A stretch of DNA of 64,000 nt from an uncultured Clostridia bacterium (GCA_947626975.1 CANQUF010000001.1:22980-86979), one strand, 5' to 3'. Positions 1 through 46,155 are shown, counted from the stretch's first letter. The notes: generated by a model from the sequence alone, not told the origin. Translations and numbers: made by a program.

Positions 1-786
1 TTTTGTGATTTATTAAAAAGTCTTCCTGAATATAAAAAACTGCTATGGAATTTTCCGAGGAACATATCTGTCTGCGACAACAGATTGTTAATTAACATTA
101 AGTTTCCTCCTTCTTATACGTATGATAAGGAAGTAATTTCATACGATGTTTTAATAGACGAGGATTTTTTAAAGGGATGTATGCAAGATGCTATATATAC
201 GTTACTAGAAAAAACTATAGCTCCATCTCCAAATAGTATTATAAAACTAGCATTAAAAATTTATTGTAAGGCTTTTTCAGTTACCATCATTAATAGTGAT
301 AAATTATTCCTTTGCTTCCTTAAAATTCTAAATGAATTAGAATCTTATAAAAACATTTTAAATAATGTGAGAACCAAAAGTTTAGTGTTTAAAGATAAAA
401 AGTTTTGCATAAAAACAACTTATCCTGGACACTTTGGTATCAATAGTACCTACGAAGAGATACTTTTTGACCCAATTGAAATAAGGTCATGTATAATTGA
501 TTCAATCATTGCGTTAATGCCTGAGGGACATCGTGCTCTAAATTCAGGAAATATAATTTCGCATGCATTAAAGCTTTATACAGGTGTTTATTCATTTACA
601 TTTCCCCAAAATACTGTCCCTGTTCTAGAGAAATTGCGAGATATGGTAAATGAAGAATTTATACCTATATATAAAAAGCTTGGTACACCTATATCTGAGT
701 CTAAGATTAGACAAAAAGCTATTAATGATTATCCAGCAGTTAGACCAAAGGATATAATCGGGTATGCAATTTCAAAAAAATTCTAA
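1..786 (+). CDS. hypothetical protein, 5'-truncated at window edge
   Basis: The frame of the listed 85..786 ORF stays open back to nt 1 with no stop, so the 'start' at 85 (TTG) is probably internal. No recognisable family motif. It is on the opposite strand to the downstream locus. Confidence 0.4.
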   Translation, partial: FCDLLKSLPEYKKLLWNFPRNISVCDNRLLINIKFPPSYTYDKEVISYDVLIDEDFLKGCMQDAIYTLLEKTIAPSPNSIIKLALKIYCKAFSVTIINSDKLFLCFLKILNELESYKNILNNVRTKSLVFKDKKFCIKTTYPGHFGINSTYEEILFDPIEIRSCIIDSIIALMPEGHRALNSGNIISHALKLYTGVYSFTFPQNTVPVLEKLRDMVNEEFIPIYKKLGTPISESKIRQKAINDYPAVRPKDIIGYAISKKF

Positions 787-796
787 ATAACAAAAT

Positions 797-830
797 GGCA
801 CCCTAGAATTTACTAGGGTACCGTTTTTAT
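797..830. terminator. bidirectional rho-independent terminator (hairpin ggcaccctag/ctagggtacc plus T-tract)
   Basis: 10-bp inverted repeat 797-806/813-822 with a 6-nt loop, followed by TTTTT on the plus strand and a U-rich run on the minus strand. It lies between convergent genes. Confidence 0.6.
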
Positions 831-831
831 T

Positions 832-1722
832 TTAATATATAATATTTACTTTTGATTTTCTTAAATAACTAGAAAATTCATCTATACTCATACTTCTATT
901 AGCATAAATTCTTGGAATTTCATATAAATTATGCTTATTAGAATAATATACTCCACCACTCATAGCAAGACCGTATTTATAATTATTTTTTGCAACTTCT
1001 ATTATATTTTTATTATACTTACCTATAGGATAACATATTGTATCTACTTTTATATCATATGTACTTTCCAAATATTTTTTAGAGTCTACTAGCTCTTTTT
1101 GCATCTCATTTAATGAAAGAGATGTAAGTTCACGATGAGTTAAAGTATGAGTTTGAACTGATACAAGGCCACTATCTATCATTTCTTTTATTTGATCACT
1201 AGTTAAATAATTAGGTCCATTAACATAGTTGCATATTATATAGATACTTGCTTTTTGATTATATTTTTTTAGCAATGGAAAAGCATTATTATAAAAATAT
1301 ACAAAGCAGTCATCAAATGTAAGTGCTACTGGTTTAGTATAATTTGATAAGTCCTCAATCTCATTTACAAATACAGTTTGATATCCATTATCAACAATAT
1401 ACTTTAATTGTTCTTCTAAAGTAGATGGTCTTAAAAAATTTTCAACATCTAAATTCTCACCATAATCATCTAAAATAAAATGATACATAAAAATTGGAAG
1501 TGATACGTCTAATTCTTTATATATTTTTTCTTCACCATTTGCAATACTAATATTTTCAATGTTTATATAATTTTTATCTTCTTTAAAAAAATTAAAAGTT
1601 TTTATTGCTATTAAATCTTTATTTTTTACAAAATAAAGAAAAGCTGGAGATAATAATAAAATTAAAATAATAAGAATAAACTTTATTCTATTTTTTACTT
1701 TAATTGTCATATATACCTCCAT
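832..1722 (-). CDS. polysaccharide deacetylase (NodB/CE4 family), N-terminal signal-anchor
   Basis: NodB motifs: LTFDDC, HTLTHRELTSLS and PIFMYHF. There is a single N-terminal TM after a basic stretch, so the catalytic domain is probably extracytoplasmic. It is paralogous to the 9050..9949 product. Confidence 0.75.
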   Translation of the reverse strand: MEVYMTIKVKNRIKFILIILILLLSPAFLYFVKNKDLIAIKTFNFFKEDKNYINIENISIANGEEKIYKELDVSLPIFMYHFILDDYGENLDVENFLRPSTLEEQLKYIVDNGYQTVFVNEIEDLSNYTKPVALTFDDCFVYFYNNAFPLLKKYNQKASIYIICNYVNGPNYLTSDQIKEMIDSGLVSVQTHTLTHRELTSLSLNEMQKELVDSKKYLESTYDIKVDTICYPIGKYNKNIIEVAKNNYKYGLAMSGGVYYSNKHNLYEIPRIYANRSMSIDEFSSYLRKSKVNIIY

Positions 1723-1783
1723 ATTTATTTTTATAAAATATTAATATTTAAATGATTTTAAATTTTATGTATTAATAATACAA

Positions 1784-3130
1784 TTATTTGTCTTTATCAA
1801 ATATTTTGGCACCTGTTCTCTTCTTAGAACTTAATTCATCTGACTTATTAACTAAATCTTCTTTATATTCTTTTTTATTATTTAATCTTTTTCTAATCTT
1901 AAGATCTTCATCTTTAGTTTTACTATTTACACTATTTTTATTATTTTTTTTGTATAAATATAAGATAAATATAAATTCAATAAGTATTATTGCTAACATT
2001 GCTAATATACCATACTTTGATCTTACTAAATTATATACTTTTCTTAAGAAACTATCATTATCATTTTCACTCTTTAAATAATTAATTTCTTCGTCTTCTA
2101 CTAAACTAGGATCTTTTACAACTTTTATTACGTATTCTTTCGTAGTAGTGCCATCTTCAGATGTTACTTTTACTGTAATAGTATTTTCTCCATCTTGTAA
2201 TCTGTCATTACCAATTATTTCAATATTTACATTTTCATTTTCTCCGAATGCAAGAATTTTTAAATTTTCTATACTTGCACCTACAGTACCGCAATCATAT
2301 TCAAATATTTCCTTTGAAAACTCAGGTGACAATGTAGCATTTTCTACAATCAAATTAAGCAAATATGAATTAGATTTTACCGGGTCAGCTGTTTTTGTAG
2401 CAACAATTGTATAAACTTTTTTTGTTCCATCTTGTGCAGTTACAGTTATAGTAATATTATTATCTCCTGCTTTTAAATCTTTATTACCAGTAATAGTAAC
2501 TTTTGAAGTTGATGCTTCTGGAACTGCTGTAATATTCAATTCACTTATATTTTCACCAATAGTTATAGTATAATTAGTTTTATTTTTATTAAAATTAGGC
2601 GTTAATCCTTCTTGATCTACTTGTAATTTTGATAAATATGCATTATTGTTTTTTACAGATGTATTTGATACTGTATTATTAGTAGTATTAATATTATTAT
2701 TATTAGTATTAGTATTATTTACTTGAGGTGCACTAACAGTTATAGTTTTTGATGCTGTTATAACACCAGTGCCATTAACTTTAGTATCAGTTTTAAAATC
2801 TACTGCTTCTAACATTTTAAATTCAAAGGTGTATGTTCCAACTGAAGTTGGTGTATAAGAATATGTCTTTGAAGCAATACCATTAATAGTGCTGCTATCA
2901 AAATTCCATAATCCTTCTGATTTTATTACTTGACCATTGCAAGTTAATGTTGCTGAGGTATATGCACCAACAGAAGTACCTAAATTAACATTTATATTAA
3001 CACTCTGTCCCAAAGTAATATTATTTGCACTCATACTAGCTGCTCTAATATCTTTAGATATAAAGAAATAAAATAAAATAATAAATACAAATATTATATA
3101 TCTAAACTTACTTTTCATATTTACCTCCAT
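1784..3130 (-). CDS. surface protein with two cadherin-like beta-sandwich domains, type-I membrane anchored
   Basis: Signal peptide, an Ig-like N-terminal domain and an N/T-rich linker. Two repeats of the LSxLxVxxGxLxPxFxxxxxxYxxxV...VTAxDGTxKxYTIxV pattern (cadherin-like beta-sandwich). C-terminal TM (ILAMLAIILIEFIFILYLY) plus a ~60-aa Lys-rich cytoplasmic tail. Confidence 0.6.
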   Translation of the reverse strand: MEVNMKSKFRYIIFVFIILFYFFISKDIRAASMSANNITLGQSVNINVNLGTSVGAYTSATLTCNGQVIKSEGLWNFDSSTINGIASKTYSYTPTSVGTYTFEFKMLEAVDFKTDTKVNGTGVITASKTITVSAPQVNNTNTNNNNINTTNNTVSNTSVKNNNAYLSKLQVDQEGLTPNFNKNKTNYTITIGENISELNITAVPEASTSKVTITGNKDLKAGDNNITITVTAQDGTKKVYTIVATKTADPVKSNSYLLNLIVENATLSPEFSKEIFEYDCGTVGASIENLKILAFGENENVNIEIIGNDRLQDGENTITVKVTSEDGTTTKEYVIKVVKDPSLVEDEEINYLKSENDNDSFLRKVYNLVRSKYGILAMLAIILIEFIFILYLYKKNNKNSVNSKTKDEDLKIRKRLNNKKEYKEDLVNKSDELSSKKRTGAKIFDKDK

Positions 3131-5649
3131 TACTCTTGTACAATTTTATTTATATTCAATATATGTTTTTGTAATTTTTGTAAATCAATCGTTGTTGGTT
3201 CACCACCATCTTTTTTTATATCAGATGATAGTTTTTGTATATTTGATAAAGCTTTTATTTTTAATATAGCTTTCTGCATTATTTGTAAATCAATTGTATT
3301 TATTAACCCTTCTCCATTTATATCACCATAAATAACAACTGAATAACTTTGAATCACATCTTTACTCTCTTTATCAGTAAGTTCAATAGTTGTTCCTGTT
3401 CCAACTAAATCATTATCTAAAATAATCTTGTTATTAATATCTTTTATTACAACTTCATATTTTTCTTTATTATATGTTAGTTTATTTAACAATTCAGAAA
3501 TTTTAGTATTTGGCTCTATTTTACTTATAATATTTTCTTTATCATTAACATTTATTTCTTTGTCAAATGTTAAGAAATCAGCTTCAGATATATCAATAAC
3601 TTTTACTTTAGCAGTTACACTTTTTTCACCATCTTTTGTCTTAAATACAACATCTGTACTACCAGAATTTACACCCTTTATTTTATTATTTTCAATTTTT
3701 ACAATATTTTCATTTTTACTTGTTACACTATACTCTTTATTTGTAGCATCATCTGGTGATATAGTAGGTACTATTGTCAAATACTTTCCTTTAATCATAG
3801 TATAATTTTCTTTAGGTATTGTTATATTTTCAACTTTTGATATAACTGTAACATTACAAGTTGAAGTAAGTCCAGTATCAATAGCTTTAACTGTTATTGT
3901 TGCATTACCTGATTTATTTGCAGTAATCTTTCCATTTTCTACTGATACAATACTTGAATCACTACTAGACCATTCTACATTTTTATTTGTGGCATCCTCT
4001 GGCTCAATTTTATACGTTAATTCTTTATTTTCGCCTTTATTTAAAGTAAGTTCAGTATCATCTAAAGTTATTTTTGTAACTTTTTTTACTACATTAACTT
4101 TACATGTTGCAGTCATTTCATTATCTAGAGATTTTACAGTAATTGTAGCTTCACCTTTTGATTTTGCTGTAAGTTTTCCATTTTCAACACTTACAATATC
4201 ACCATTACTACTAGACCATTCTACATCTTTGTTTGTTGCATTATTTGGTAATATTGTACAAGTAAGATCATATGTATCACCTAAATTCATTTCTAAATTT
4301 GTAGTATTTAAAGATATTCCTGTTACTTTTACATTTGTGTCAACTTCTTTTGTATAGTCTCTAAATACATATCCTTCTATACCGTTATCAAGTCTTACTT
4401 TATCCCATTGTGTATTTAAACTTTTAGCAATTCTTGTCATTTGGTCACCTTCATCAAGTTTTGCTACTATAGAGTATGTTGTTCCTGGACCTGATCTAAT
4501 ATACAATTTTGATGGAGCTACATCATAAGCGGCTATTCTTGTATTATCAGATACATACTCCTCTGAATTATTACCTGGATATGGTGAAAGAGAATCAGGC
4601 ATATTATTAAATACAGGAATATGAAACTCAAATACATTATTTAACATACCCATTTTTTCATATGCTGTATATGTACTATATGATTCATTTGTTGGTGCAA
4701 GAATATTTGTCATATATTGATACGCATAAAGTGCTATTGCATTTCCATATGGATTGTTTACGTCAAATTTTTGAAAGTATGTTGTATCTTGTCCCCACTT
4801 TATCCATTGATTTTTTAAGATATCTGTTCCACCTTTAATAGCACTATCAGGATCAGTCCAATTTTTATTTTTTGCATATTTAAGACCATTAGTAATAGAA
4901 TCTGGTGGAGTTGCACCAATATTAAAATAGTTGTATGGAACTACTCCATCAATAACAGTTGAACCGTTTATTGAACGATTAGAAGTAATATTTCCACCAG
5001 TTTCTTGTTTTATTCTTGATGCAATATATACACCACTAACGTTATATTGTTTTGCAGCATCTAGAATAATACTAGAATAAGTCTTATTCATATTAATCAT
5101 TGATCCTTGTTTTTGATATTCTGATCTATTATACATTGATGTACCATATAATACTTTTTCAATAGAATCTATAGTATCCATAGATTTACTATAGCTTAAA
5201 GTTTGAAATTGAAATACTTCTTTTTCATTTATATGGTTTCTTGGATCTAACATATATTTTACAGCTGGTATTGAAGCAATAACCCAACCACCATCATCAA
5301 TCTGATAATCTTGTCCATCTTTTTTCCATGCAGGATCATAACTTGATGGGACAGCACTAATTCCAGTATTTACTTCATAGCTTTCATGACTTACTGCCTC
5401 ATTCCAATCAAGACCTGTATATACTGCTTTAAATACCCAATTTGGATGAGCTTGCTTTAAGGCATTTATGTATGGTACGTAACTTGCTGGAAAATCATCT
5501 CTCATTTGTGATATAGGAAGTCCAGTCGTAATTTTTGCTTGTACTTGATTTATATTTGTAAATAATGGCATTATACTACATGTGATAATAGAAATTATTA
5601 CAAATAATATTGATATTTTCTTTATTTTTCCTTTTTTCTCATACATCAC
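3130..5649 (-). CDS. secreted multidomain glycan/peptidoglycan hydrolase (GH73-like catalytic region, SH3b, 3-4 Big_2 Ig-like domains, C-terminal dockerin-like module)
   Basis: Signal peptide. The N-terminal ~420 aa are paralogous to the N-terminus of the 1254-aa protein, with a QETGG...YNYFNIGA...GQDTTYFQKFDV pattern resembling glucosaminidase (GH73) motifs. The SH3b-like segment is SKLYIRSGPGTTYSIVAKL...GYVF. Big_2-like repeats follow (VTGISLN..., KITLDDTELTL..., ITIPKENYTMI...). The last ~65 aa look like a dockerin. Confidence 0.55.
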   Translation of the reverse strand: MMYEKKGKIKKISILFVIISIITCSIMPLFTNINQVQAKITTGLPISQMRDDFPASYVPYINALKQAHPNWVFKAVYTGLDWNEAVSHESYEVNTGISAVPSSYDPAWKKDGQDYQIDDGGWVIASIPAVKYMLDPRNHINEKEVFQFQTLSYSKSMDTIDSIEKVLYGTSMYNRSEYQKQGSMINMNKTYSSIILDAAKQYNVSGVYIASRIKQETGGNITSNRSINGSTVIDGVVPYNYFNIGATPPDSITNGLKYAKNKNWTDPDSAIKGGTDILKNQWIKWGQDTTYFQKFDVNNPYGNAIALYAYQYMTNILAPTNESYSTYTAYEKMGMLNNVFEFHIPVFNNMPDSLSPYPGNNSEEYVSDNTRIAAYDVAPSKLYIRSGPGTTYSIVAKLDEGDQMTRIAKSLNTQWDKVRLDNGIEGYVFRDYTKEVDTNVKVTGISLNTTNLEMNLGDTYDLTCTILPNNATNKDVEWSSSNGDIVSVENGKLTAKSKGEATITVKSLDNEMTATCKVNVVKKVTKITLDDTELTLNKGENKELTYKIEPEDATNKNVEWSSSDSSIVSVENGKITANKSGNATITVKAIDTGLTSTCNVTVISKVENITIPKENYTMIKGKYLTIVPTISPDDATNKEYSVTSKNENIVKIENNKIKGVNSGSTDVVFKTKDGEKSVTAKVKVIDISEADFLTFDKEINVNDKENIISKIEPNTKISELLNKLTYNKEKYEVVIKDINNKIILDNDLVGTGTTIELTDKESKDVIQSYSVVIYGDINGEGLINTIDLQIMQKAILKIKALSNIQKLSSDIKKDGGEPTTIDLQKLQKHILNINKIVQE
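3133..3340 (-). other. dockerin-like C-terminal module (two Ca-loop + helix segments)
   Basis: The first segment, GDINGEGLINTIDLQIMQKAIL, fits the type-I dockerin pattern (D-x-N-x-[DE]-G-x-I-N-x-x-D then LxxLxKxIL). The second, DIKKDGGEPTTIDLQKLQKHIL, has a conserved helix but a degenerate loop. Confidence 0.45.
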
Positions 5650-6413
5650 TTATTATCTCCTTTATTTAAAATTTGTATATAAGTTTTAACCTCTATAAAA
5701 TTATATCATAAAAGAAAAAAATGCAAAAGTATTTTGTAGAAATTTGTATACAGAATATATTATGTAAAAATGATATAGAGAAAAATTTTCAAGATAATTC
5801 TTGAATACTTTTTCCTTGTTAATTTCAATATGAAAATAGTTCTTCTACAATTTATTTAATATGTTAGTATCTTCGATATATTTTTTCCTTTGCCTTTTGT
5901 TGCTTTTAATAATGCATATTTATCTGTGCTATATGTTTTAACACATTATTTATGCTATAACTTCTGGAAGTAGTTGCATCAGTATGTATAAGGTACTATT
6001 TAGTATTTTCTTTTCTATATTTTCAATTAATAGTACAGATTTGTTTTTAATTCTATAATGAAATTTTCTATATTTCCATTAGATATATTTAGCTTGTTTT
6101 TTGATATCGATTTTATTAAATATGATAGTCTGTCAATTGCAACTAACCCTTCTATATTTAGAAAAGAGAATAAAGCTTTTATATCAGATCCATATTGTAC
6201 ATCTGTCTTAAATTCTTTTGGTATATTATATTTTCCATTTTCATCTTGATAAAATCTATATTCTTTAGCACTACATCTATTTTTATATCCAATACATATT
6301 TAGATATATATTTATCTGATACTTACCTACATTAATTACTTCATGAGTAACTTCTTATTATTTATTTGGTTTAATATCAGATGATGGAGGTAAGAGACGA
6401 ATTATCACTATTA

Positions 6414-6665
6414 TTACCTAATTGTTTTTTTAAGTCTATCTACTTCATTATATAATTTATTATTCTTGTCTTTTAAATCTTTTATTTTCTTTTTTAAGGC
6501 ATGTACTTCTTCTTTATGTGTTTTCTTTATTTGTTTAATTTCTTTTAAATATTTTTGAGAAGTTTGTCCTTTTACAATTTTTATTTCTTGTGATAAATTA
6601 TCACATTTTTTCATAACTTCTTCTAATTGTTTATACATATCATTCATCTGACCAATTGAAGACAT
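6414..6665 (-). CDS. small coiled-coil protein (83 aa), unknown function
   Basis: Heptad-rich Lys/Glu sequence with a plausible RBS (AAGGACGGTG) 7 nt upstream. It stands alone in a 1.4-kb AT-rich spacer. Confidence 0.3.
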   Translation of the reverse strand: MSSIGQMNDMYKQLEEVMKKCDNLSQEIKIVKGQTSQKYLKEIKQIKKTHKEEVHALKKKIKDLKDKNNKLYNEVDRLKKTIR

Positions 6666-7091
6666 AGTTTATCACCGTCCTTTAAATATATTATACAATA
6701 TATTTAGAGTAATACAAATTAAATTTATGTTACAAAATTGAGATAACAAACGAAAAAATATGAAAATGAGATAGAGTTATCCACATTTCCATATTTATAT
6801 TAAAAAAATTACTATTTTAACTTTTATTATATTAATATTTTCTTTGTATAATTATCCACAAATACATAATTTTGTTACTTAAATTTTATTTTTCTAGTCT
6901 AAATAGTAACAGATAACCGGTTTAATATATCAAATCTTATTGCATTGATACTTTTCTTGTTCTAATCCTTTAGTGACTCATTTAGAATAGTCGGGCTATA
7001 AAGGAATAAATTTTTTAGTATTATATTTTTTTCTGCACTATGTTATAATTTATTAATTTAACTATACATTATCGCGCTTTTTTGTATTATG

Positions 7092-8108
7092 TCAGTCACT
7101 ATTTAAAATATTCTTTTGATAATTCCAACTATCTCTACAAATATCCTCCAAAGTTTTTTCTGTTTTAAATCCTAATTCTTCTCGTGCTTTTGTTGGATCT
7201 GCATAATAGCAAGCTAAATCTCCAGGTCTTCTTTCTACAATTTTATATGGTATTTTTATATTATTTACTTTCTCAAAAGTTTTCACAATATCAAGTACAC
7301 TATATCCTGTTCCTGTTCCAAGATTATATATATATAATCCATTATCAGATGTATCTAATTTATTTAAAGCAAGCAAATGTCCTTTTGCTAAATCTACAAC
7401 ATGTATATAATCTCTAACTCCCGTTCCATCAGGTGTGTCATAATCATCGCCAAATACTGATAATTCACTTAAACTACCACTTGCAACTTTTTGAATATAT
7501 GGCATCAAGTTGTTTGGAATTCCTTGAGGTTCTTCACCTATAATTCCAGAACTATGTGCTCCAACAGGATTAAAATATCTTAAACTTACTATATTCCAAG
7601 TATTATCAGATTTATACAAATCATCAAGAATTATTTCTATCATTGACTTTGTAGTACCATAAGGACTTGTACCTCTTTTTATCTCCATACTTTCAACATA
7701 TTTTGTTGTACCTGGATTTCCGTATATAGTTGCTGATGAACTAAAAATGAATTTTTTAACATTATATTTTTTCATAACATCTAGTAATGTAAGTGCACCT
7801 GTAACATTATTTATATAATATTCTAAAGGTTTTTGTACAGACTCTCCTACTGCTTTATACCCTGCAAAATTTATTACTGCATCAATATCATTATTTTTAA
7901 AAATTTCTTCTAAAGTTTCTCTATTAGTATAATCTCCTTCATAAAATTTAAAGTCCTTATTTGTAATCTTTTTTATATTATCTAATGTTTTGGGTTTACT
8001 ATTAGAAAAGTTGTCAATAATAATTATTTCCCTTCCTGCATTTAATAGTTCTACACATGTATGAGAGCCAATATAACCTGCTCCTCCAGTTACTAGTATT
8101 TTCTTCAT
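7092..8108 (-). CDS. galE: UDP-glucose 4-epimerase
   Basis: Rossmann motif VTGGAGYIGSH, catalytic YGTTK (YxxxK), and a length (338 aa) and overall pattern typical of GalE. Confidence 0.85.
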   Translation of the reverse strand: MKKILVTGGAGYIGSHTCVELLNAGREIIIIDNFSNSKPKTLDNIKKITNKDFKFYEGDYTNRETLEEIFKNNDIDAVINFAGYKAVGESVQKPLEYYINNVTGALTLLDVMKKYNVKKFIFSSSATIYGNPGTTKYVESMEIKRGTSPYGTTKSMIEIILDDLYKSDNTWNIVSLRYFNPVGAHSSGIIGEEPQGIPNNLMPYIQKVASGSLSELSVFGDDYDTPDGTGVRDYIHVVDLAKGHLLALNKLDTSDNGLYIYNLGTGTGYSVLDIVKTFEKVNNIKIPYKIVERRPGDLACYYADPTKAREELGFKTEKTLEDICRDSWNYQKNILNSD

Positions 8109-8138
8109 ATAATTTCCTCCAAAAATTAAAACAAAAAA

Positions 8139-9059
8139 CTAATGTTTTAGTATTTTCTTTATTAATATTTCGAATATAAGTTCAAATTTCCTTATATATT
8201 TTAGAATTTTAAAAATTAATATTTGAAATAAATTAGCCTGGTTATACTTTTTTTGAAAGTATATCTTACTGTCAAATAATATATCTTGTTTTTTAAATAC
8301 ACTCATTATTTTACCTATAGTTTTGCTTTCATAATGAGTAAATGATAATTTATTTAAAGAGTATATATCGTAATTAAATTTCTTTGCATTTACACTTATA
8401 ATATCCTCTTCATAGAATAAAAAAGTATTATCATCAAAATATCCTATATTTTTAAACAGTTCGTGATTTGCAATAAAAAAAGATCCAGCTATTGCATCGA
8501 CTTTTAATATTTCTTTTTTAAAATCATCTTTAGAATATTCTCCTTTTTTAAAAAATGGATATAGTAAAAACTGTGTTATACGAGTAGAATTTGCAATATC
8601 AGTTATAACATTTCTATGCTTCCAAGCACTTCTTCTTGCAGGGCCATTTATGTAATTCATTCTTGGAGATGCTATTACACAATTTTCATTTTTATCTAAA
8701 AATTGAATTGTATTTATTATATCTTGCTCTTTTATATATACATCAGGATTTGATATTATAACGTATTTAAACGTATCAACTCCATAATGTTTATCAATAT
8801 ATTTTAAGCCATAATTATTACCATATGCATATCCACCATTCTTATTACTAACTATAACCTCAACTTTACTAGAAGTAAGCTTTTGTAGACTTTTAACTTC
8901 ATCTTTATTAGTGGAGTTATTGTCTACTATTATAACCTTATCTAATATTTTATAGTCTTTTATATTTTTTATAATTTCCTCTGTATTTTCTTTATCGTTA
9001 TAATTTAATATTATCATTGCTATAGACATAACAGTTACCTTTCTTAACTTTATTCCCAT
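8139..9059 (-). CDS. glycosyltransferase family 2
   Basis: GT-A N-terminus (IILNYNDKENT...IIVDNNSTN) and an acidic DxD region. It overlaps the upstream deacetylase gene by 10 nt. Confidence 0.7.
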   Translation of the reverse strand: MGIKLRKVTVMSIAMIILNYNDKENTEEIIKNIKDYKILDKVIIVDNNSTNKDEVKSLQKLTSSKVEVIVSNKNGGYAYGNNYGLKYIDKHYGVDTFKYVIISNPDVYIKEQDIINTIQFLDKNENCVIASPRMNYINGPARRSAWKHRNVITDIANSTRITQFLLYPFFKKGEYSKDDFKKEILKVDAIAGSFFIANHELFKNIGYFDDNTFLFYEEDIISVNAKKFNYDIYSLNKLSFTHYESKTIGKIMSVFKKQDILFDSKIYFQKKYNQANLFQILIFKILKYIRKFELIFEILIKKILKH

Positions 9060-9949
9060 TCTACATTAACTTTAGATTTTGTTACATAATCTTTAAATGT
9101 ATCCATTGACATAGATCTATTTACGTATATTCTAGGTATAGCATACATATTCTTATGTTTTGATGTATAATATGTACCACCAGTCATAGCGAGTCCATTT
9201 TTATATCCTATTTCTTTAGATAAATCTAATACTACATTATTAAATGATCCATAAGGATAACATATTGTTGTAGAATCTATACCTAAGTTCTCTTTTAAAT
9301 AAATTTTAGATTTATTTAATTCATTATATATACTATCTTTATTTAAATCTGCAAGTCTTGGATGCGTTACTGTATGAGATTGAATGTCGACAAGTCCACT
9401 ATCTTTCATTTCTTTTAACTCATCTAATTTAATATATCCAGGAGTACCAATTAAAGATGTAATAACATAATACGAAGCTTTCATATTATATTCTTTTAAT
9501 AACGGAAAAGCATTAATATAAAAGTCTTCCAAACCATCATCAAAAGTAAGCCAAACTGGTTTTGTAAAATTTTGTAAGTTTTCAATATCATCTTTATATA
9601 TTGTTTCATATCCATTATCTTTTAAATATTGAAGTTGCTTTTTTAACGTTTCTGGACGTACCATATTTTCTGGAAATTCATAATCACCTGTATCATCTCT
9701 TACAAAATGATACATAAATATTGGTACTGCTGCATCTAAACTTTTTACTTTCTTTAATTCGGCATTTGCTATATTATCTTGTAAAATAAAATTTACTGTA
9801 TTTTCTTTTTTATTTTCATTAGCTAAAGTTTTATTATTTAAACTTATTTTACTAAAATATATAGTTATTGCAACTATTATAGCTAATATTATACAAATGA
9901 ATATAACAAAAAACATTTTTTTATTTATTTTAGTAATTATATATACCAC
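9050..9949 (-). CDS. polysaccharide deacetylase (NodB/CE4), N-terminal signal-anchor
   Basis: WLTFDDGLEDFY, HTVTHPRL and PIFMYHF motifs, with a single N-terminal TM. It is paralogous to 832..1722. Confidence 0.75.
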   Translation of the reverse strand: MVYIITKINKKMFFVIFICIILAIIVAITIYFSKISLNNKTLANENKKENTVNFILQDNIANAELKKVKSLDAAVPIFMYHFVRDDTGDYEFPENMVRPETLKKQLQYLKDNGYETIYKDDIENLQNFTKPVWLTFDDGLEDFYINAFPLLKEYNMKASYYVITSLIGTPGYIKLDELKEMKDSGLVDIQSHTVTHPRLADLNKDSIYNELNKSKIYLKENLGIDSTTICYPYGSFNNVVLDLSKEIGYKNGLAMTGGTYYTSKHKNMYAIPRIYVNRSMSMDTFKDYVTKSKVNVEWE

Positions 9950-9975
9950 CTCTTATTAATTTAATTATTAAAGTT

Positions 9976-10365
9976 CTAATTACTACCTTTCAAAGTTTTT
10001 TTTGGTTTGATATTAATTACAATTATCCCAATTATAACAAGAGATACACCTATTATTCCATTTATAGTAATTTTTTCTTTAAAAAGTAAATAACCTGACA
10101 ATAAAGTTAAAACTTGTGTTATTCCAGAACTAATTGGCATTATATAACTTAAATCAAATTTTACTATAAGATTAGTAAATAAAAGAAAACTTAATATATA
10201 ACTAATAAATCCAAGTAAACTTATTAAACTCATAGAAAAAGAAAATGATCCTTGTCCAAATAAAAAAGTTCCTGTATTTCCTCCTATTTTCATTAATACT
10301 AATCCTAAAACTGTAAGTATTAAATATGATATAACAAATATAGTTTTTTTCATTTTTCCCCCCAT
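9976..10365 (-). CDS. small 4-TM EamA/SMR-like transporter subunit (ArnE/ArnF-like)
   Basis: About 125 aa, four predicted TM helices, and a tandem paralog immediately upstream. The pair architecture resembles heterodimeric undecaprenyl-phosphate-sugar flippases. Confidence 0.5.
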   Translation of the reverse strand: MGGKMKKTIFVISYLILTVLGLVLMKIGGNTGTFLFGQGSFSFSMSLISLLGFISYILSFLLFTNLIVKFDLSYIMPISSGITQVLTLLSGYLLFKEKITINGIIGVSLVIIGIIVINIKPKKTLKGSN

Positions 10366-10366
10366 A

Positions 10367-10732
10367 TTATACTATTTTTAAATTCATTATAACAATACCA
10401 ACTATTATAATACTTGCTCCTATTATTGAAGTTTTACTAATTTTTTCCTTAAATAACAAATTAGCAGATATCAAAGTTAATATTTGTACTATACCAGTAA
10501 CTATTGGCATTATATAACTCAAATCAAACATTACAACAAGTCTTGTAAATAACAAAAAACTACATAAATAACTTAAGAAGCCTAATGCACTAATAGGACT
10601 CATTGATAAACTTATATCTTTTTTATTTAGTTTGATTTTACCGGGATTTCCACCTTTTTTCATTAAAATAAGTCCTAAAAGTGTTAATATAAGGTAAACT
10701 ATTATCATTAAATATTTCATTTTTTCCCCCAA
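10367..10732 (-). CDS. small 4-TM EamA/SMR-like transporter subunit (ArnE/ArnF-like), paralog
   Basis: Clear paralog of the 9976..10365 product, sharing FDLSYIMPI and LLFKEKI. The two genes are separated by 1 nt. Confidence 0.5.
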   Translation of the reverse strand: MGEKMKYLMIIVYLILTLLGLILMKKGGNPGKIKLNKKDISLSMSPISALGFLSYLCSFLLFTRLVVMFDLSYIMPIVTGIVQILTLISANLLFKEKISKTSIIGASIIIVGIVIMNLKIV

Positions 10733-10735
10733 AAT

Positions 10736-11518
10736 CTATTTCTTTTTATTTAATTTATACACTAAATATATGATTATAATTATTAGAATTCCAACAATTC
10801 CAATAAACACTCTAATATCAATAGTTTTTCTACTTTTATCAGTATTCATATTTGAATCCTCTTGTGATGTTTCAACTACATCACTAATTGCTTTATCTAT
10901 TGTATCTTTTTTTAAATTTAGTGTATATTCTTTTGCGGTACTTCCATCTTCAGAATTTACTTTTATTTTTATAACATTATTACCATCTTTTAAATTTTCA
11001 TTTCCAGATATTTCTACAGTAGCTCCTTCTTGTCTTGGAGCAGCGAAAATTGAAACATTATTTATCTTATTTGGTACACTACCTAAATCATAGTTTAAGG
11101 TTTCAGGTACAAATGGTGGCACTAACTCTAAGTTTTCAACAATTAAAGTTTGCAAATATGAATCTGATTTATCTTTATCTGATGCTTTAGTTACAGTTAT
11201 AGTATAAACATTTTCTTTACCATTTTTATCAGTTACTTCAATTAATACTGTATTATCACCAGATTTTAAATTATCATTTCCTGATACTTTCACTGTAGAA
11301 TCAGTAGAACTTGCTACTGCATTTACATCAATAGAATTTATAGTATCTTTTACAAACAAAGAATAACTTGTTTGCGATGGAGTGAAATTTGGGGATAAAC
11401 CTTCTTGGTTTACCTCCAATTTCATTAATTCAGTATTTGTAGCTGCCATACATACACAAATGTTAGTAAGAAAAAAAACACTAAAAAAGAACACAATTTT
11501 CTTAAAATATTTTGACAT
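10736..11518 (-). CDS. surface protein with two cadherin-like beta-sandwich domains, C-terminal TM anchor
   Basis: Signal peptide, two cadherin-like beta-sandwich repeats (LMKLEVNQEGLSPNF...YTITVTK and LQTLIVENLELVPPF...YTLNLKK), and a C-terminal TM ending in KKK. It is a shorter paralog of the 1784..3130 product. Confidence 0.6.
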   Translation of the reverse strand: MSKYFKKIVFFFSVFFLTNICVCMAATNTELMKLEVNQEGLSPNFTPSQTSYSLFVKDTINSIDVNAVASSTDSTVKVSGNDNLKSGDNTVLIEVTDKNGKENVYTITVTKASDKDKSDSYLQTLIVENLELVPPFVPETLNYDLGSVPNKINNVSIFAAPRQEGATVEISGNENLKDGNNVIKIKVNSEDGSTAKEYTLNLKKDTIDKAISDVVETSQEDSNMNTDKSRKTIDIRVFIGIVGILIIIIIYLVYKLNKKK

Positions 11519-11531
11519 ATTTTCCTCCTAT

Positions 11532-14500
11532 CTATTTTACTAATATATATATCATAGATTTAATATTATTATTTTCATCTTTTATAAATAATGTTGCATC
11601 TCCTGAACCTTTTGGAGTTATTATTCCATTCTCATCAACTGTAAACACTGAAGTATTATTTGTTTCATAATGTACATTAATATATTTACTATCAGCTAAA
11701 TTTATGAAGTCTGATACTTTATATGTATTTTCTAAACTTAAAGTTCTATGATCAGTATATTCTACATTCAATTTTAGTTGAGCATATACAAGATTTGAAC
11801 TATCATTAGAAACTACAGTTATAATTGTTTCACCTAAGCTTTTTGCGACTATATTTCCATCTGAATTTACATCAGCAATATTGCTATCTGCTACTTTAAA
11901 AGTTACATCCTTATATTTTGCATTATCAGGCAAAATTTTATAATTTATTTTACATGAATCACCAGATTTTAAGGTAAGTTCTTTTTTATCTAATACAATT
12001 TCTGTTACTTTTACATAATCTATAACTTTTATATAAACCATTGCTAAATTATTGCCATTAATATCTTGCACAAATACAGTGGCATCTCCTTTTCCAGTTG
12101 GTGTTAATTTCCCATCTTGTGATATCTTAGCTACAGATTCATTATTTATTTTTAATATCGCATCAGAATATTTCTTATTATTAACATCTAATACATTCCA
12201 AATTGACTTAGGAGTTACCATATCTGTTTCAATAGAAGCAGTATATTGCAAGTTAACATTACATGTTACATCATTAAAAGTTTTATCCTCTGAAGAAATA
12301 ATTATTTTAGAATTTCCTAAAAATTTAGCATATATATTTCCATCATCATCAATTGTAAATAGATCTTCATTTGCACTTTTATATTTTAATTTTTTATACT
12401 TAGCATTATCAGGAACTACAGTAGCATCTAATTTGTCACTTTCACCTACTTTTACATTAAATTCATCTTTATTTAATTCTATTTTTTCTACTTTAATATA
12501 TTCCTTTACATTTACATATATCATACTCTTAGTATTACCTGATGAATCAATTATAAATAGCGTACAATCTCCTAATGAACTATTGACTGTTACTAATTTA
12601 TTTTTATTATCAATAGATAAAAGAGTATTATTATTTGTACTAAGAGTACAATTTCCATATTTTTCTGTATCAAAGAAATATGAAAAAGATAATTTATCTT
12701 CAAAATATACTGTTTTACTGTCAGTATATCCAACTTTAATATAACATAATTCAATAATATTTCCATTTTTATCTTCTACAAATACACTTGCATCTCCTAA
12801 AAATTTTCCTGTTACATTTCCTGAACTATCTACATTAATTACATCATTATTGTTAGTATAATATTTTATGCCAATTTTATCAATATTTATTTTCTCTCCT
12901 ACTTTTATTGATTTTGAATCCGTATAGTGTACTCCCACATAGTATATTCCAATTAAATTACCATTTTTATCTTCTACAAATACACTTGCATCTCCTAAAA
13001 ATTTTCCTGTTACATTTCCTGAATTATCTACATTAATTACACTATTATTATTTGTATAATATCTTGTACCAATTTTACCAATATTTATTGTCTCTCCTAC
13101 CTTTATTGATTTTGAATTTGTATAGTGTACTCCCACATAGTATAGCCCAATTAAATTACCATTTCCATCTTCTACAAATACACTTGCATCTCCTAAAAAT
13201 TTTCCTGTTATATTTCCTGAACTATCTATATTAATTACACTATTATTGTTAGTATAATATTTTATTCCAGTTTTACCAATATTTATTGTCTCTCCTACTT
13301 TTATTGATTTTGAATCTGTATAGTGTACTCCCACATAGTATAGCCCAATTAAATTACCATTTCCATCTTCTACAAATACACTTGCATCTCCTAAAAATTT
13401 CCCTGTTATATTTCCTAAATTATCTAAATTAATTACACTATTATTGTTGGTATAATATTTTTTACCATTACCATCAATATGTATCTTTTCTCCTATTTTT
13501 AATGAAAATTGATCTGTGTATTTTACTGCAACATAAAACATAGCTAATCTTCTTCCATCTAATGAATCTATAAATACAGTAGCGTCTCCTAAGAATTTTC
13601 CCTTTACATTTCCTTTTGAATCCACATATAAAACTTCATTATTATTAGTATATATCTTACAATTTCCATATTTTTCTAAATCTATATTAATAGTTTCGCC
13701 AACTTTAACAGAAAAAGAATCTGTATATCCAACTGCAACATAGCAAGTATCTTGTATTGATAAATCATCATCACTCATTGCAAATACAGTTGCATCTCCT
13801 ATATTTCTTCCTGTTACAATACCATTTTTATCTACTGTTACAACATCAGAGTTGTTTGTAGTATATATAACATCTTTAAATCTTGCATTATTTGGAGATA
13901 TTGTCGCATTAAGTTGTTCACTTTGTCCAGATTTTATTTTTATTTTTTCTTTATTTAATGTCAGTCCTGTTACTCTTGTATATCCAGTATATTCCTTAAC
14001 ATAGCTAGAGAAAACATAACCTTCAGTTCCATCACTTAGTTTTACCTTATCCCATTGAATATTTATACCTTTTTTTATTCTAGTCATTATTGTTCTATTC
14101 TCTTGGCCTTCAAAATCTTCTATAATTTTTGTAACTACTGCAGAATTAGAATTTGGTTCAGCTCTGATTATAAAGGTATCTTTTACTCCAAAATCAGATG
14201 TATCATCAAGATATACTTTTGTATGATCATCTTCAAATTTTGCTTCTTCACCAACTTGAACCGGTGTAGGAGTCATATTATTAAATACAGGTATATGAAA
14301 TACAAATGATGAATCTAACATGTTACATGCCTTATATGAAGAATATATTCGACTTGATTCACTAGACGGAGCTAATATATTAGTCATATATTGCATCCAA
14401 TACAAAGATTGACCTCCTGTAATATCATTTACATCCCACTTTTCAAAATATACTGTATCTTGTCCCCATTTTACATAATCGTTATATATCTTTTTAGCAG

Positions 14501-15296
14501 CTCCTTCAATTGATGATGATGGATGTGTCCAACCTTCATCACGAGCTCGTAAAAGTGCATTAACAACTATAGATCTACCACCTGCTGTATTAGCTCCAAT
14601 ATTGAAAAAGTTATATAAGCCTTCATATCCAGGATATGACCCATTTATGCAATTATTATTTATTATGTCACCACTATTTTCTTGCCTTATTCTTGATGCT
14701 AAATGTACAGGGCTAACATTATATTTTTTACCATTTTCAGTTATTATATCAGAATATGACTTTTTTCCCGTTTCTCCATCAAGAAATAGCCAATTACCAT
14801 TATTTTTATATCTAACTCCGTAATATGAGTCACCCATAGGAGTTCCGTATAAAACTTTTTTTACCACATCTGATGTATCTACATTATTATTACTTGTTAC
14901 TGCAAATTGGAATATTTTTTCCTCATTTAAAAAATTTCTTGGATCTAAGCAATAACCAACTGCAGATTCTGAAGCATTAACCCATCCAGGTTCTATATTT
15001 TCTTCACTCTTTTTCCATTCTGATGAATAACTAGATGGTACCAAACTTCTTCTGTCAACAGTTTCATTATCTACTGTATTTTGCCAATCTAAATCAGTAT
15101 ATACAGCAACAAACTTCCAGTTGGGATGAATACTATGCAAATTTTGCAAATAAGTTTGATAGCTTTCAGGAAAAGCATTAATTCCTTCTACATATTGAGA
15201 TTTTGCATAAATAACATTTTTACCTAAAAATATTATAGCGATGAATATAAATAGTTTTATTATATTAATTTTACATTTTTTTATTTTATTTATCAT
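11532..15296 (-). CDS. secreted multidomain glycan/peptidoglycan hydrolase (GH73-like region, SH3b, many Big_2-like repeats)
   Basis: The N-terminal ~430 aa are paralogous to the 839-aa protein. The SH3b-like segment is GYVFSSY. After that come about eight ~65-aa Big_2-like repeats, the central four nearly identical, and further Big_2 domains to the C-terminus. Confidence 0.55.
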   Translation of the reverse strand: MINKIKKCKINIIKLFIFIAIIFLGKNVIYAKSQYVEGINAFPESYQTYLQNLHSIHPNWKFVAVYTDLDWQNTVDNETVDRRSLVPSSYSSEWKKSEENIEPGWVNASESAVGYCLDPRNFLNEEKIFQFAVTSNNNVDTSDVVKKVLYGTPMGDSYYGVRYKNNGNWLFLDGETGKKSYSDIITENGKKYNVSPVHLASRIRQENSGDIINNNCINGSYPGYEGLYNFFNIGANTAGGRSIVVNALLRARDEGWTHPSSSIEGAAKKIYNDYVKWGQDTVYFEKWDVNDITGGQSLYWMQYMTNILAPSSESSRIYSSYKACNMLDSSFVFHIPVFNNMTPTPVQVGEEAKFEDDHTKVYLDDTSDFGVKDTFIIRAEPNSNSAVVTKIIEDFEGQENRTIMTRIKKGINIQWDKVKLSDGTEGYVFSSYVKEYTGYTRVTGLTLNKEKIKIKSGQSEQLNATISPNNARFKDVIYTTNNSDVVTVDKNGIVTGRNIGDATVFAMSDDDLSIQDTCYVAVGYTDSFSVKVGETINIDLEKYGNCKIYTNNNEVLYVDSKGNVKGKFLGDATVFIDSLDGRRLAMFYVAVKYTDQFSLKIGEKIHIDGNGKKYYTNNNSVINLDNLGNITGKFLGDASVFVEDGNGNLIGLYYVGVHYTDSKSIKVGETINIGKTGIKYYTNNNSVINIDSSGNITGKFLGDASVFVEDGNGNLIGLYYVGVHYTNSKSIKVGETINIGKIGTRYYTNNNSVINVDNSGNVTGKFLGDASVFVEDKNGNLIGIYYVGVHYTDSKSIKVGEKINIDKIGIKYYTNNNDVINVDSSGNVTGKFLGDASVFVEDKNGNIIELCYIKVGYTDSKTVYFEDKLSFSYFFDTEKYGNCTLSTNNNTLLSIDNKNKLVTVNSSLGDCTLFIIDSSGNTKSMIYVNVKEYIKVEKIELNKDEFNVKVGESDKLDATVVPDNAKYKKLKYKSANEDLFTIDDDGNIYAKFLGNSKIIISSEDKTFNDVTCNVNLQYTASIETDMVTPKSIWNVLDVNNKKYSDAILKINNESVAKISQDGKLTPTGKGDATVFVQDINGNNLAMVYIKVIDYVKVTEIVLDKKELTLKSGDSCKINYKILPDNAKYKDVTFKVADSNIADVNSDGNIVAKSLGETIITVVSNDSSNLVYAQLKLNVEYTDHRTLSLENTYKVSDFINLADSKYINVHYETNNTSVFTVDENGIITPKGSGDATLFIKDENNNIKSMIYILVK
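12600..13750 (-). repeat. tandem ~195-bp intragenic repeats (encode ~65-aa Big_2-like units), core copies near-identical
   Basis: The DNA unit '...atcttctacaaatacacttgcatctcctaaaaattttcctgtta[ct]atttcctga...' recurs at about 12.78, 12.97, 13.17 and 13.36 kb with only a few mismatches. More diverged copies flank the core. Confidence 0.7.
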
Positions 15297-15408
15297 ATAT
15301 TACACTCCTATTTACATATAATTTACTAACATAAATTTTATATACCTAAAATAATTAATATAGTAAATAAAAAATACATAACTAATGGTAATATTTTTTA
15401 TATCCATA

Positions 15409-17929: not shown

Positions 17930-17930
17930 A

Positions 17931-18671: not shown

Positions 18672-18702
18672 AATTCTATAAATCCTTTTACATATAATTC
18701 AA

Positions 18703-27350: not shown

Positions 27351-27377
27351 AAAAAACCTCTTTTCTTTTTAATTTCT

Positions 27378-46141: not shown

Positions 46142-46155
46142 ATATATTTCCTTTC

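Follow-up and report, generated by a model that had tools for sequence, protein, structure and literature searches.

The positioning and restraint of peptidoglycan hydrolases in Gram-positive bacteria are known for a few models, namely SagB-SpdC, FtsEX-PcsB/CwlO and wall-binding repeats. Pairs of cohesins and dockerins outside of cellulosomes have also been described, among them those of Clostridium perfringens (cohesins PDB 2w1n and 2vo8) and of Ruminococcus bicirculans, for which one citing sentence mentions one dockerin and one cohesin 'associated with a GH73 enzyme' (PMC4611034, citing Wegmann 2014). Dockerin-bearing cell-wall hydrolases and cellulosomal lysozyme activity are reported in ruminococci (Morais 2016 and Bensoussan 2017, as cited in PMC6403190). 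The deacetylase PplD is a streptococcal de-N-acetylase of the N-acetylglucosamine (GlcNAc) that links rhamnopolysaccharide to peptidoglycan; its catalytic residues are H105, D167/D168, H223/H227 and R302, and its homologs are found mainly in streptococci (PMC8807736). Here, a locus related to these systems is analyzed in a stretch of 64,000 nucleotides from an uncultured Clostridia bacterium (GCA_947626975.1 CANQUF010000001.1:22980-86979), hereafter the window. It contains two modules, A (832-5649) and B (9050-15296), each encoding a large secreted hydrolase, a cadherin-like membrane protein, referred to as the anchor, and a polysaccharide deacetylase.

The conserved unit at this locus consists of two genes, hydrolase and anchor, and not of three. 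It is rather probable that this pair forms a cell-wall remodelling unit, in which a GH73 autolysin is tethered by its dockerin to the membrane anchor via a cohesin-like N-terminal domain of the anchor (N-domain).

Like the non-cellulosomal pairs of R. bicirculans and C. perfringens, the pair in module A combines a type I dockerin on a glycoside hydrolase with a beta-sandwich partner on another protein. As far as the one citing sentence on R. bicirculans goes, the enzyme belongs to GH73 in both cases, with one pair per genome and no multi-cohesin scaffoldin. As distinct from these pairs, as far as they are described, the dockerin's partner is here a type I membrane protein that carries two cadherin-like domains plus a cytoplasmic tail and is always encoded immediately downstream. 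Its N-domain is divergent, with about 30% of the homologs matching Pfam Cohesin, and the cassette of dockerin and N-domain is hypervariable. The cellulosomal hydrolases and lysozymes of ruminococci also combine a peptidoglycan hydrolase with a dockerin, but these dock on multi-enzyme plant-fibre scaffoldins and presumably act on other cells, whereas here each enzyme has one dedicated membrane anchor in non-cellulosomal genomes. The peptidoglycan release complex SagB-SpdC of Staphylococcus aureus (6u0o) includes with SagB one of the closest relatives of the catalytic domain, the other being AtlE, and gives the example of a GH73 enzyme held at the membrane by a membrane-protein partner so as to process glycan strands near the membrane, as is proposed here. 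However, SagB has a transmembrane helix of its own and SpdC is polytopic and CAAX-protease-like, while the present enzyme is secreted, with an N-terminal signal sequence only, and its partner is a single-pass beta-sandwich protein. SagB-SpdC is an analogy of principle, and the hydrolase-anchor pair is not a member of that system.

An earlier note on this DNA had known of no described system of this composition. This was nearly right: the literature yielded no description of the cadherin-like partner anchored in the membrane, of how widespread the pair is or of a co-varying cassette, but non-cellulosomal cohesin-dockerin pairs are known, including the GH73-associated pair that the citing sentence reports for R. 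bicirculans.

Hydrolases and anchors of the two modules

Gene calling recovered all six open reading frames (ORFs) of the two modules on the minus strand where the earlier note had placed them. The modules are collinear, which confirms the common gene order and orientation described there. Pairwise BLASTP of the A and B products gave 41% identity over 533 amino acids (aa) for the hydrolases (E 1e-104), 46% over 178 aa for the cadherin-like anchors (E 2e-49) and 53% over 240 aa for the deacetylases (E 2e-88). The three protein pairs are paralogs, as had been claimed, with a similarity far above chance, and A and B are old, diverged copies of one gene set. Every domain named in the earlier note was found again with Pfam. 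The features of the hydrolases are as follows, with hidden Markov models abbreviated as HMMs and AlphaFold2 as AF2.

3130..5649, minus strand: module A hydrolase, 839 aa, with signal peptide, GH73, SH3b, three Big_2, an X-like domain of about 80 aa and a type I dockerin (ORF, Pfam, PDB sequence matches, AF2 and Foldseek)
4594..5517, minus strand: GH73 catalytic domain of the A hydrolase, residues 45-352 (family HMM built here and AtlE alignment)
4993-5007, minus strand: candidate catalytic Glu of the A hydrolase in QETGG, residue 216 (AtlE alignment, 'sRikqETGgn' versus 'sHalvETGng')
4351..4509, minus strand: SH3b (SH3_3) of the A hydrolase, residues 381-433 (Pfam PF08239, 36.4 bits, E 5.9e-9; PDB 2kq8, cell wall hydrolase SH3, E 1.6e-4)
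3136..3351, minus strand: type I dockerin of the A hydrolase, residues 767-838 (Pfam PF00404 and a dockerin HMM built here, E 2e-23)
11532..15296, minus strand: module B hydrolase, 1254 aa, with signal peptide, GH73, an SH3b-like domain and many Big_2 and Big_2-like repeats (ORF, Pfam, BLASTP, family HMM)
14265-15182, minus strand: GH73 of the B hydrolase (HMM, motifs)
14670-14684, minus strand: QENSG of the B hydrolase, with Glu as residue 206 (HMM, motifs)
13995-14168, minus strand: SH3b-like domain of the B hydrolase (HMM, motifs)

According to sequence matches and the predicted fold, the N-terminal region shared by both hydrolases is a GH73 N-acetylglucosaminidase of the SagB/AtlE/Atl type, for which cleavage of peptidoglycan is predicted. 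In a phmmer search of the PDB, this region matched AtlE (4pi7, E 3.7e-14), SagB (6fxp, E 4.5e-14), Atl (6fxo, E 3.6e-11) and C. perfringens Acp (5wqw, E 7e-4). The NCBIfam SagB model matched this region with E 3.4e-16 and 59 bits, for an equivalog cutoff of 425, and the Pfam Glucosaminidase model gave no match in the hydrolases at E≤0.01. The AF2 model of the A catalytic domain has a predicted local distance difference test score (pLDDT) of 85.3. When it was searched against the PDB with Foldseek, the top 11 hits were all GH73 glucosaminidases (E 3e-11 to 2e-8, target-normalised TM-score 0.61-0.76), the best being SagB (6u0o/6fxp, E 3e-11). In the HMMER alignment, the Glu of QETGG in A and of QENSG in B aligns with the Glu of the ETG motif of AtlE (E138), and this residue (E216 in A numbering) is invariant in 22 family members. 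In AtlE, E138A is the catalytic mutant according to the description of PDB entry 4pi8.

The shared N-terminal region is thus, in line with the earlier note, predicted to be an enzymatic and not a binding domain. The note's estimate of a catalytic region of about 430 aa plus an SH3b holds in that the region is shared and enzymatic and the SH3b is present, but the catalytic part covers only about 310 aa (45-352 of A) and the SH3b follows it. The view that the hydrolase lacks its own means of anchoring did not hold, since an SH3b is present in the hydrolases and a dockerin in A as well. An amidase or another glycoside hydrolase family was rejected because the PDB sequence matches and Foldseek all point to GH73. 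An origin from phage endolysins was also rejected, as no relatives were found in 2.9 million viral contigs and the housekeeping chromosomal neighbourhoods are conserved.

The proposed expansion of Big_2 repeats in B was borne out by a tandem array at 12752-13467 with a 198-bp unit, 3.6 copies and 92% identity, which is recent. A 66-aa repeat of the B hydrolase (12752-13614, minus strand; residues about 560-850) matches NCBIfam NF053514, 'BLB8/JUQZ-1 family protein', in three stretches with 70 bits versus a cutoff of 40. Among the relatives that have a name, an uncultured Clostridium sp. and Clostridium sp. CAG:465 come closest, with 72-76% identity in the GH73 region. For annotation, such 'Ig-like domain-containing proteins' are better named GH73 glucosaminidases.

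The following features belong to the anchors.

1784..3118, minus strand: module A anchor, 444 aa (from ATG 3118; longest ORF to 3130), with signal peptide, cohesin-like N-domain, N/T-rich linker, two cadherin-like domains, transmembrane helix at 1955-2011 and a cytoplasmic tail of about 56 aa (ORF, ribosome binding site, Pfam)
2720..3046, minus strand: variable N-terminal beta-sandwich of the A anchor, the proposed dockerin receptor (AF2, hhalign chain, Cohesin matches of homologs, co-variation)
2105..2647, minus strand: tandem cadherin-like beta-sandwiches of the A anchor (Pfam PF12733 in two stretches; family HMM E 8e-97)
10736..11518, minus strand: module B anchor, 260 aa, with signal peptide, two cadherin-like domains at 10901-11440, transmembrane helix at 10760-10816 and a 7-aa tail (ORF, Pfam, BLASTP, family HMM)

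Both anchors are predicted type I membrane proteins with a signal peptide and a C-terminal transmembrane helix. The Cadherin-like family PF12733 matches each of them in two stretches, with 62.5 bits for A and 86.2 bits for B at a cutoff of 24.2. The 444-aa product of module A is 100% identical to a public protein (P0121), and at least 391 homologs of the anchor exist. The B anchor lacks the N-terminal domain of about 110 aa present in A and has no real tail. The dockerin and the cytoplasmic tail noted earlier for A were recovered as Dockerin_1 in the hydrolase, beside SH3_3 and three Big_2 in its Pfam content, and as the tail of the anchor. In relatives, the tails have a median length of 113 aa, reach up to 211 aa and are charged. 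They diverge fast, with about 25-35% identity even among close relatives (window 1784-1954; L007-L086).

Conservation of the gene pair

The N-terminal region of the hydrolase has 1575 homologs at E≤1e-10, mostly proteins from uncultured gut Clostridia that contain Big_2 and a dockerin and have a length of about 750 aa. Wherever the genomic context was examined, the anchor gene follows the hydrolase gene in the same orientation, in most cases as its direct neighbour, and a frequent neighbourhood is Era, RecO, GlmS, the pair and a PP-loop ATPase. For a survey, one genome per species was used, the loci were classed with HMMs built here, and the counts were limited to hydrolase genes that are complete and are followed by 1.7 kb of sequence or more. 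The loci were distributed as follows.

Dockerin present, anchor with N-domain: 61 loci
Dockerin present, no anchor: 1 locus
Dockerin absent, anchor without N-domain: 1 locus (L065)
Dockerin absent, no anchor: 7 loci
Mixed states: 0 loci

The N-domain thus occurs in the survey only where the hydrolase has a dockerin. Module A fits the class with dockerin and N-domain, and module B fits the class without either. Judging from their domain content, module B and its ortholog in L065, another uncultured Clostridium, have lost both. Of 62 dockerin-bearing relatives from other species, 61 have the anchor as the next gene, in the same orientation and mostly no more than about 30 bp away, and a transmembrane helix follows the cadherin-like region in 61/62 anchors. 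The anchors of the relatives consist of a signal peptide, a variable beta-sandwich of about 110 aa, two cadherin-like domains, a transmembrane helix and a cytoplasmic tail. These observations support a functional pairing of hydrolase and membrane anchor as predicted from sequence, and with it the anchoring or scaffold relation that the earlier note had suggested.

Tandem hydrolase genes were found in six genomes (L053, L057, L061, L068, L072 and L082), and in four of these (L053, L057, L061 and L068) each hydrolase has an anchor gene of its own. Since tandem copies occur in several other genomes, duplication of the unit is recurrent and not specific to the window. A member without dockerin and with 40% identity lies on a contig labelled Bifidobacterium catenulatum (L076), among matches that otherwise come from Coprococcus and Lachnospiraceae. 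This assignment to Bifidobacterium is probably a binning error.

Dockerin and N-domain

The dockerin of the A hydrolase matches PF00404 at residues 774-831 with 34.9 bits versus a cutoff of 22.9. Read by eye, its first Ca2+-loop segment, DINGEGLINTID, is canonical. Neither Pfam nor the dockerin HMM built here detected a dockerin in the B hydrolase, and an HMM survey of the window revealed no further cohesin or dockerin beyond the module A pair. The N-domain of the A anchor is all-beta in its AF2 model (pLDDT 86.7). N-domains are hypervariable, with 8 sequence classes in the 120 closest homologs, in which the remainder of the protein is 58-62% identical. One of these classes matches Pfam Cohesin (PF00963) above threshold, with 31.3 bits versus a cutoff of 24.1 for P0125. 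Among 69 anchor N-domains, Cohesin is the commonest Pfam family (20/69, best E 5.4e-9); other Pfam matches are to BatD (11/69) and Big_2 (5/69). With hhalign, the class of the window N-domain matched another class, c1, with 98.9% probability, and c1 matched the cohesin-positive class c2 with 97.7%. In a profile search of the PDB with the N-domain, Ig-like domains rank first and scaffoldin cohesins appear only at E of about 1-2.

The A anchor N-domain is classed here as cohesin-like on the grounds of these profile links and is likely the partner of the A dockerin, a mechanism that the earlier note had missed. The name 'cohesin-like' is used instead of assigning the domain to Cohesin because there is no direct Pfam match and the direct profile link is weak.

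Co-variation was measured in a set of 72 hydrolase-anchor pairs. The distances of dockerins and N-domains correlate with a Spearman coefficient of 0.72, compared to 0.14-0.26 for either of them versus the GH73, Big_2, X and cadherin regions, which among themselves reach 0.55-0.79. The partial Mantel r between dockerin and N-domain is 0.83 (p≤5e-4). Mosaic profiles give the same picture at the level of single loci. Compared to the distant locus L058, the body of the window A pair is 30-55% identical, but the dockerin is 65-75% and the N-domain 68-85% identical; compared to its close relative L007, the body is 70-95% identical, but the dockerin only 25-45% and the N-domain 15-35%. In four genomes with tandem pairs, dockerin and N-domain are jointly divergent in three and jointly conserved in one. 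An adjusted Rand index of dockerin versus N-domain clusters was uninformative because the dockerins collapse into 4 clusters at the chosen threshold; it was set aside, and the distance correlations and mosaic profiles were used.

Plain physical linkage fails to explain this co-variation since the abutting X and cadherin regions do not co-vary with dockerin and N-domain. The sequence comparisons indicate that both elements evolve and are exchanged as one cassette, which would fit a cognate, specificity-determining interface.

Deacetylases

The deacetylases complete the gene set in both modules.

832..1710, minus strand: module A deacetylase, 292 aa (from ATG 1710), with N-terminal transmembrane helix and CE4 domain; FMYH, TFDD, HTLTH and IPRI (Pfam PF01522, PDB matches, motifs, start)
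9050..9949, minus strand: module B deacetylase, 299 aa, with N-terminal transmembrane helix and CE4 domain; FMYH, TFDD, HTVTH and IPRI (Pfam PF01522, PDB matches, motifs)

Both proteins match Polysacc_deac_1 (PF01522), with 91 and 109 bits. In the PDB, the A copy matches BA0330 (4v33, E 3e-28) and PplD (6dq3, E 4e-27), and the best match of the B copy is Streptococcus pyogenes PplD (6dq3, E 1.3e-31); further relatives are 4hd5, 6go1 and PgaB. The catalytic His, Asp-Asp, HxxxH and Arg motifs of PplD are kept in both copies, as matched by motif and not by a residue-numbered alignment. By these matches, the deacetylases belong to the PplD/BA0330/PgaB type of CE4 enzymes, a subgroup that also includes IcaB; they are anchored in the membrane, extracytoplasmic and predicted to be active, with intact motifs. 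They share with PplD the N-terminal transmembrane helix and the extracellular CE4 domain, and the B copy lies in a rhamnose-polysaccharide locus. The A copy differs in scoring marginally better versus Bacillus anthracis BA0330 than versus PplD, and the substrate is a predicted one. By analogy, the enzymes most likely de-N-acetylate GlcNAc of a wall polymer, either in the linkage unit between polysaccharide and peptidoglycan or in a GlcNAc side chain. For annotation, they should be treated as PplD-like wall-polymer de-N-acetylases.

A survey of the co-occurrence of all three genes had been proposed, and it showed that the pair recurs, while a homologous deacetylase is present in the flank of only 6/63 loci, each from a different species and always 2.3-3.1 kb downstream of the pair. 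The three-gene module therefore does not hold as a general feature. The deacetylases are lineage-specific neighbours and not obligatory partners, which in the window are co-transcribed or co-located with the pair. The idea that the deacetylase makes or edits the substrate of the hydrolase also found no support, as PplD, the closest characterised relative, edits the sugar linking polysaccharide and peptidoglycan instead.

Proposed mechanism and alternative explanations

In the mechanism proposed for the pair, the first gene would provide a secreted GH73 hydrolase of glycan strands with an SH3b for wall affinity and an Ig-like Big_2 arm, and the second gene a type I membrane protein whose stalk is made of two cadherin-like beta-sandwiches. 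In its canonical form, found in module A and about 60 other species, the C-terminal dockerin would plug into the cohesin-like tip of the anchor and the enzyme would be held at the outer face of the cytoplasmic membrane. The cadherin-like domains, the linker and the Big_2 arm would set the reach of the catalytic domain into the wall, where the tethered enzyme would trim or separate the cell's own peptidoglycan. In module B, the plug would have been lost and the Ig-like arm lengthened. Physical binding, the own wall as substrate and the substrate of the deacetylases are what we infer from the sequences. Since neither half of the plug is left in module B, hydrolase and anchor must be coupled there in a different or looser way, and the cadherin-like domains may bind the hydrolase or the polysaccharide of the locus directly.

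A more far-reaching version is tentative and, on balance, doubtful. Here, a private, fast-diversifying plug of dockerin and cohesin-like domain would tether the main glucosaminidase autolysin of gut Clostridia to a dedicated transmembrane receptor. The plug would be a cassette across the gene boundary that is swapped between lineages, and its type would determine the cells on which a given enzyme docks, acting as a self/non-self lock that shuts out foreign or paralogous autolysins from the anchor. The cytoplasmic tail would couple the placement of the enzyme to the cell interior.

Several points weigh against a tether of dockerin and cohesin-like domain. The second repeat of the A dockerin, DIKKDGGEPTTID, is degenerate by eye, since position 3 of the loop is a Lys and one residue is inserted; the dockerin of L058 shares this variant. 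The window A N-domain has no Pfam Cohesin match at E≤1, its class is connected to the cohesin-positive classes only transitively (direct hhalign versus c2 gave 21% probability), and fold searches with it returned generic, non-diagnostic matches. The segments coding for dockerin and N-domain lie within about 100 bp of each other, and shared recombination tracts could yield some co-variation without binding. Furthermore, the surveyed species are phylogenetically related, so the counts of the survey are not independent events. Finally, the dockerin is not the sole link because module B keeps the adjacency of the two genes without the plug.

This persistence of the pair in module B and L065 also favours a link by other means, with an N-domain that is an unrelated Ig-like module, such as one targeted by phages or immunity or one that binds glycans, a dockerin that binds a partner encoded elsewhere in the genome, and coupling via the cadherin-like domains. 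The missing direct Cohesin match of the window N-domain, its generic fold matches and the N-domains that match Big_2 or BatD would fit this as well. It is nevertheless very unlikely in view of the perfectly linked presence and absence of dockerin and N-domain (61 + 1 + 1 + 7 loci, no mixed state), their strong co-variation, which is absent with the directly abutting domains, and the joint divergence or conservation of both elements in the four genomes with tandem pairs. Another alternative concerns the target: the hydrolase could be displayed on the surface as a weapon or feeding enzyme against the walls of other bacteria, chitin or host glycans, and not remodel the own wall. Dockerin-bearing wall hydrolases and the cellulosomal lysozyme activity in ruminococci, as far as cited in PMC6403190, are in line with this use, as is a hypervariable cassette exchanged between lineages, which is common for proteins that are surface-exposed or involved in conflict. 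However, in many species the surroundings of the pair are conserved and of a housekeeping kind (Era, RecO, GlmS), and the nearest structural relatives are the housekeeping autolysins SagB, Atl, AtlE and Acp. The single-pass anchor with its short stalk of three small domains would place the enzyme in or near the own wall, a wall-binding SH3b is present, and the window contains no other cohesin or dockerin. A role as weapon or feeding enzyme is therefore considered improbable.

An obligate module of three components, in which the deacetylase makes or edits a polymer that the giant hydrolase cuts while held by the cadherin-like scaffold, is suggested by the window itself, where both copies retain the three genes in the same order and module A is operon-like, being preceded by a promoter-like site and closed by a terminator-like hairpin behind the deacetylase. 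An ortholog of the deacetylase also lies 2.3-3.1 kb downstream in one clade (L001, L005, L006, L014, L019, L026, L027, L037 and L065). Against this stand the low number of species with a deacetylase nearby among those with enough flank and the intervening genes, namely a PP-loop gene on the opposite strand between deacetylase and pair in relatives outside module B, and a DUF2142 gene in the module B ortholog of L065. In addition, PplD acts on the linkage GlcNAc of a polysaccharide, which is no substrate of the hydrolase, and peptidoglycan whose GlcNAc is de-N-acetylated is usually protected from muramidases and glucosaminidases instead of becoming a substrate for them. An obligate three-component module is thus unlikely, and the two-gene unit with a tethered GH73 autolysin remains the preferred explanation.

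Organization of module A

For the A anchor and the A deacetylase, the protein lengths had been given as 448 and 296 aa, which correspond to the longest ORFs. A GGAGG lies 5 nt upstream of ATG 3118 and of ATG 1710, so both proteins likely begin four codons later and have 444 and 292 aa. The other lengths, 839 aa for the A hydrolase and 299, 260 and 1254 aa for the B products, stand. The longest ORFs and candidate signals of module A are listed below.

3130-5649, minus strand: longest ORF of the A hydrolase (ORF call)
1784-3130, minus strand: longest ORF of the A anchor (ORF call)
832-1722, minus strand: longest ORF of the A deacetylase (ORF call)
5700..5727, minus strand: promoter-like site with extended -10 (TTTGCA-16-TATAAT, TG before -10), 51 nt upstream of the A hydrolase start (consensus match)
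797..822, minus strand: terminator-like hairpin directly after the A deacetylase stop, with a 10-bp stem, 6 GC pairs and a T-rich tail (consensus match only)

The region is AT-rich, with about 25% G+C, and nearly all genes are on the minus strand. Promoter-like matches are no more frequent in it than expected by chance, and the site at 5700..5727 has positional support only. The strong hairpin is a probable end of a hydrolase-anchor-deacetylase operon, and with these putative signals module A looks like an operon of its own. No RNA element reached the Rfam gathering thresholds in window positions 1-20000.

Between module A and galE, 1.4 kb (5650-7091) are almost free of ORFs and have no Rfam match. 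The sole ORF in this segment (6414-6665) encodes 83 aa that are rich in lysine and glutamate and coiled-coil-like, with a weak TSC22 match. Unlike module A, the canonical pair of relatives has GlmS and RecO in its vicinity. The segment may be a remnant of the event that put module A beside the polysaccharide locus.

Surroundings of module B

Module B lies inside an ATP-binding cassette (ABC) transporter-dependent locus for a rhamnose cell-wall polysaccharide. This locus contains RmlB, RmlC, RmlA, RmlD, a phosphoglucomutase, Wzm and a Wzt with a C-terminal binding domain, as well as MetK, a methyltransferase and many genes for glycosyltransferases of families 2 (GT2) and 4 (GT4). PBP2, MreD, MreC and MreB adjoin it. 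The features close to module B are the following.

8139..9059, minus strand: GT2, 306 aa, overlapping the stop of the B deacetylase (Pfam PF00535; 57% identical ortholog at the same position in L065)
9976..10732, minus strand: two proteins of 129 and 121 aa with four transmembrane helices each, similar to small multidrug resistance (SMR) and EamA proteins (Pfam EamA and Multi_Drug_Res; weak NCBIfam ArnE/ArnF and EbrA/B matches)
15409-17577, minus strand: DUF7657/DUF7654 membrane protein, 722 aa (Pfam)
17552-18671, minus strand: GT2 of 246 aa and a small DUF2304 membrane protein (Pfam)

L065 shares the arrangement of module B, with orthologs of the hydrolase (45% identity, 1317 aa, without dockerin), the 260-aa anchor (53%), the deacetylase (74%), the 306-aa GT2 and GalE (69%). 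In place of the SMR/ArnE/F-like pair, it has a DUF2142 membrane protein. Because of this synteny, module B is an established, conserved arrangement, and the duplication into A and B is older than these species. The same comparison assigns the SMR pair and the GT2 to the polysaccharide machinery and not to the hydrolase system. The earlier note had counted a GT2 and an ArnE/F-like pair as part of module B. These genes are present, but the GT2 lies outside the interval given for the module, the ArnE/F matches are weak, and both are part of the polysaccharide machinery. The SMR/EamA-like pair is a probable flippase pair for undecaprenyl-phosphate-sugars, as suggested by its family matches. Just upstream of the module B ortholog, L065 carries an ISL3-family transposase (8020-9207, minus strand).

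The extra genes around module B recall Arn-type pathways with GT2, CE4, SMR flippase and GT-C, a likeness that presumably bears on the polysaccharide locus only. An analogy of GT2, CE4 and SMR pair to ArnC/ArnD/ArnEF was not adopted for the deacetylase, because its nearest homologs are extracytoplasmic and the SMR pair is replaced by DUF2142 in L065. The trio of GT2, DUF2304 and DUF7657/DUF7654 proteins (15409-18671, minus strand) is kept in L065. It resembles streptococcal GacI/GacJ/GacL, which we take to add GlcNAc side chains onto rhamnan.

Further upstream, a protein of 1139 aa (20946-24365, minus strand) has an N-terminal S-adenosylmethionine (SAM) methyltransferase-like motif, a middle coiled-coil read by eye and a C-terminal GT2, of which the GT2 only was confirmed. 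Near it, MetK, a separate methyltransferase and the Wzt with its C-terminal binding domain PF14524 are encoded (26211-29997, minus strand), with confirmed domains. This protein and its neighbours recall the WbdD-like chain-terminator or ruler systems that we assume to operate in ABC transporter-dependent O-antigen synthesis. Outside of this locus, a collagen-repeat protein with an exosporium-type BclA C-terminal domain (47908-48813, plus strand) lies beside a GerA/GerB/GerC germination operon (43699-47754), and both together indicate a spore-former.

Significance

Dozens of species of uncultured gut Clostridia carry the gene pair, as do some Lachnospiraceae, and the family of the hydrolase exceeds 1500 members. 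For the positioning of a wall hydrolase in Gram-positive bacteria, the pair suggests one more solution, in which a plug and socket of the cellulosome type would join a secreted GH73 enzyme to a single-pass membrane protein. Should this hold, cohesin-dockerin modules would have a housekeeping function in non-cellulolytic bacteria, the many 'orphan' single dockerins in gut genomes would be explained, and a family of naturally orthogonal small binding pairs would be available. If the tentative self/non-self role of the plug were true as well, autolysins of Gram-positive bacteria would be controlled by a new principle, and cohesin-dockerin pairs would have a physiological role outside of cellulosomes.

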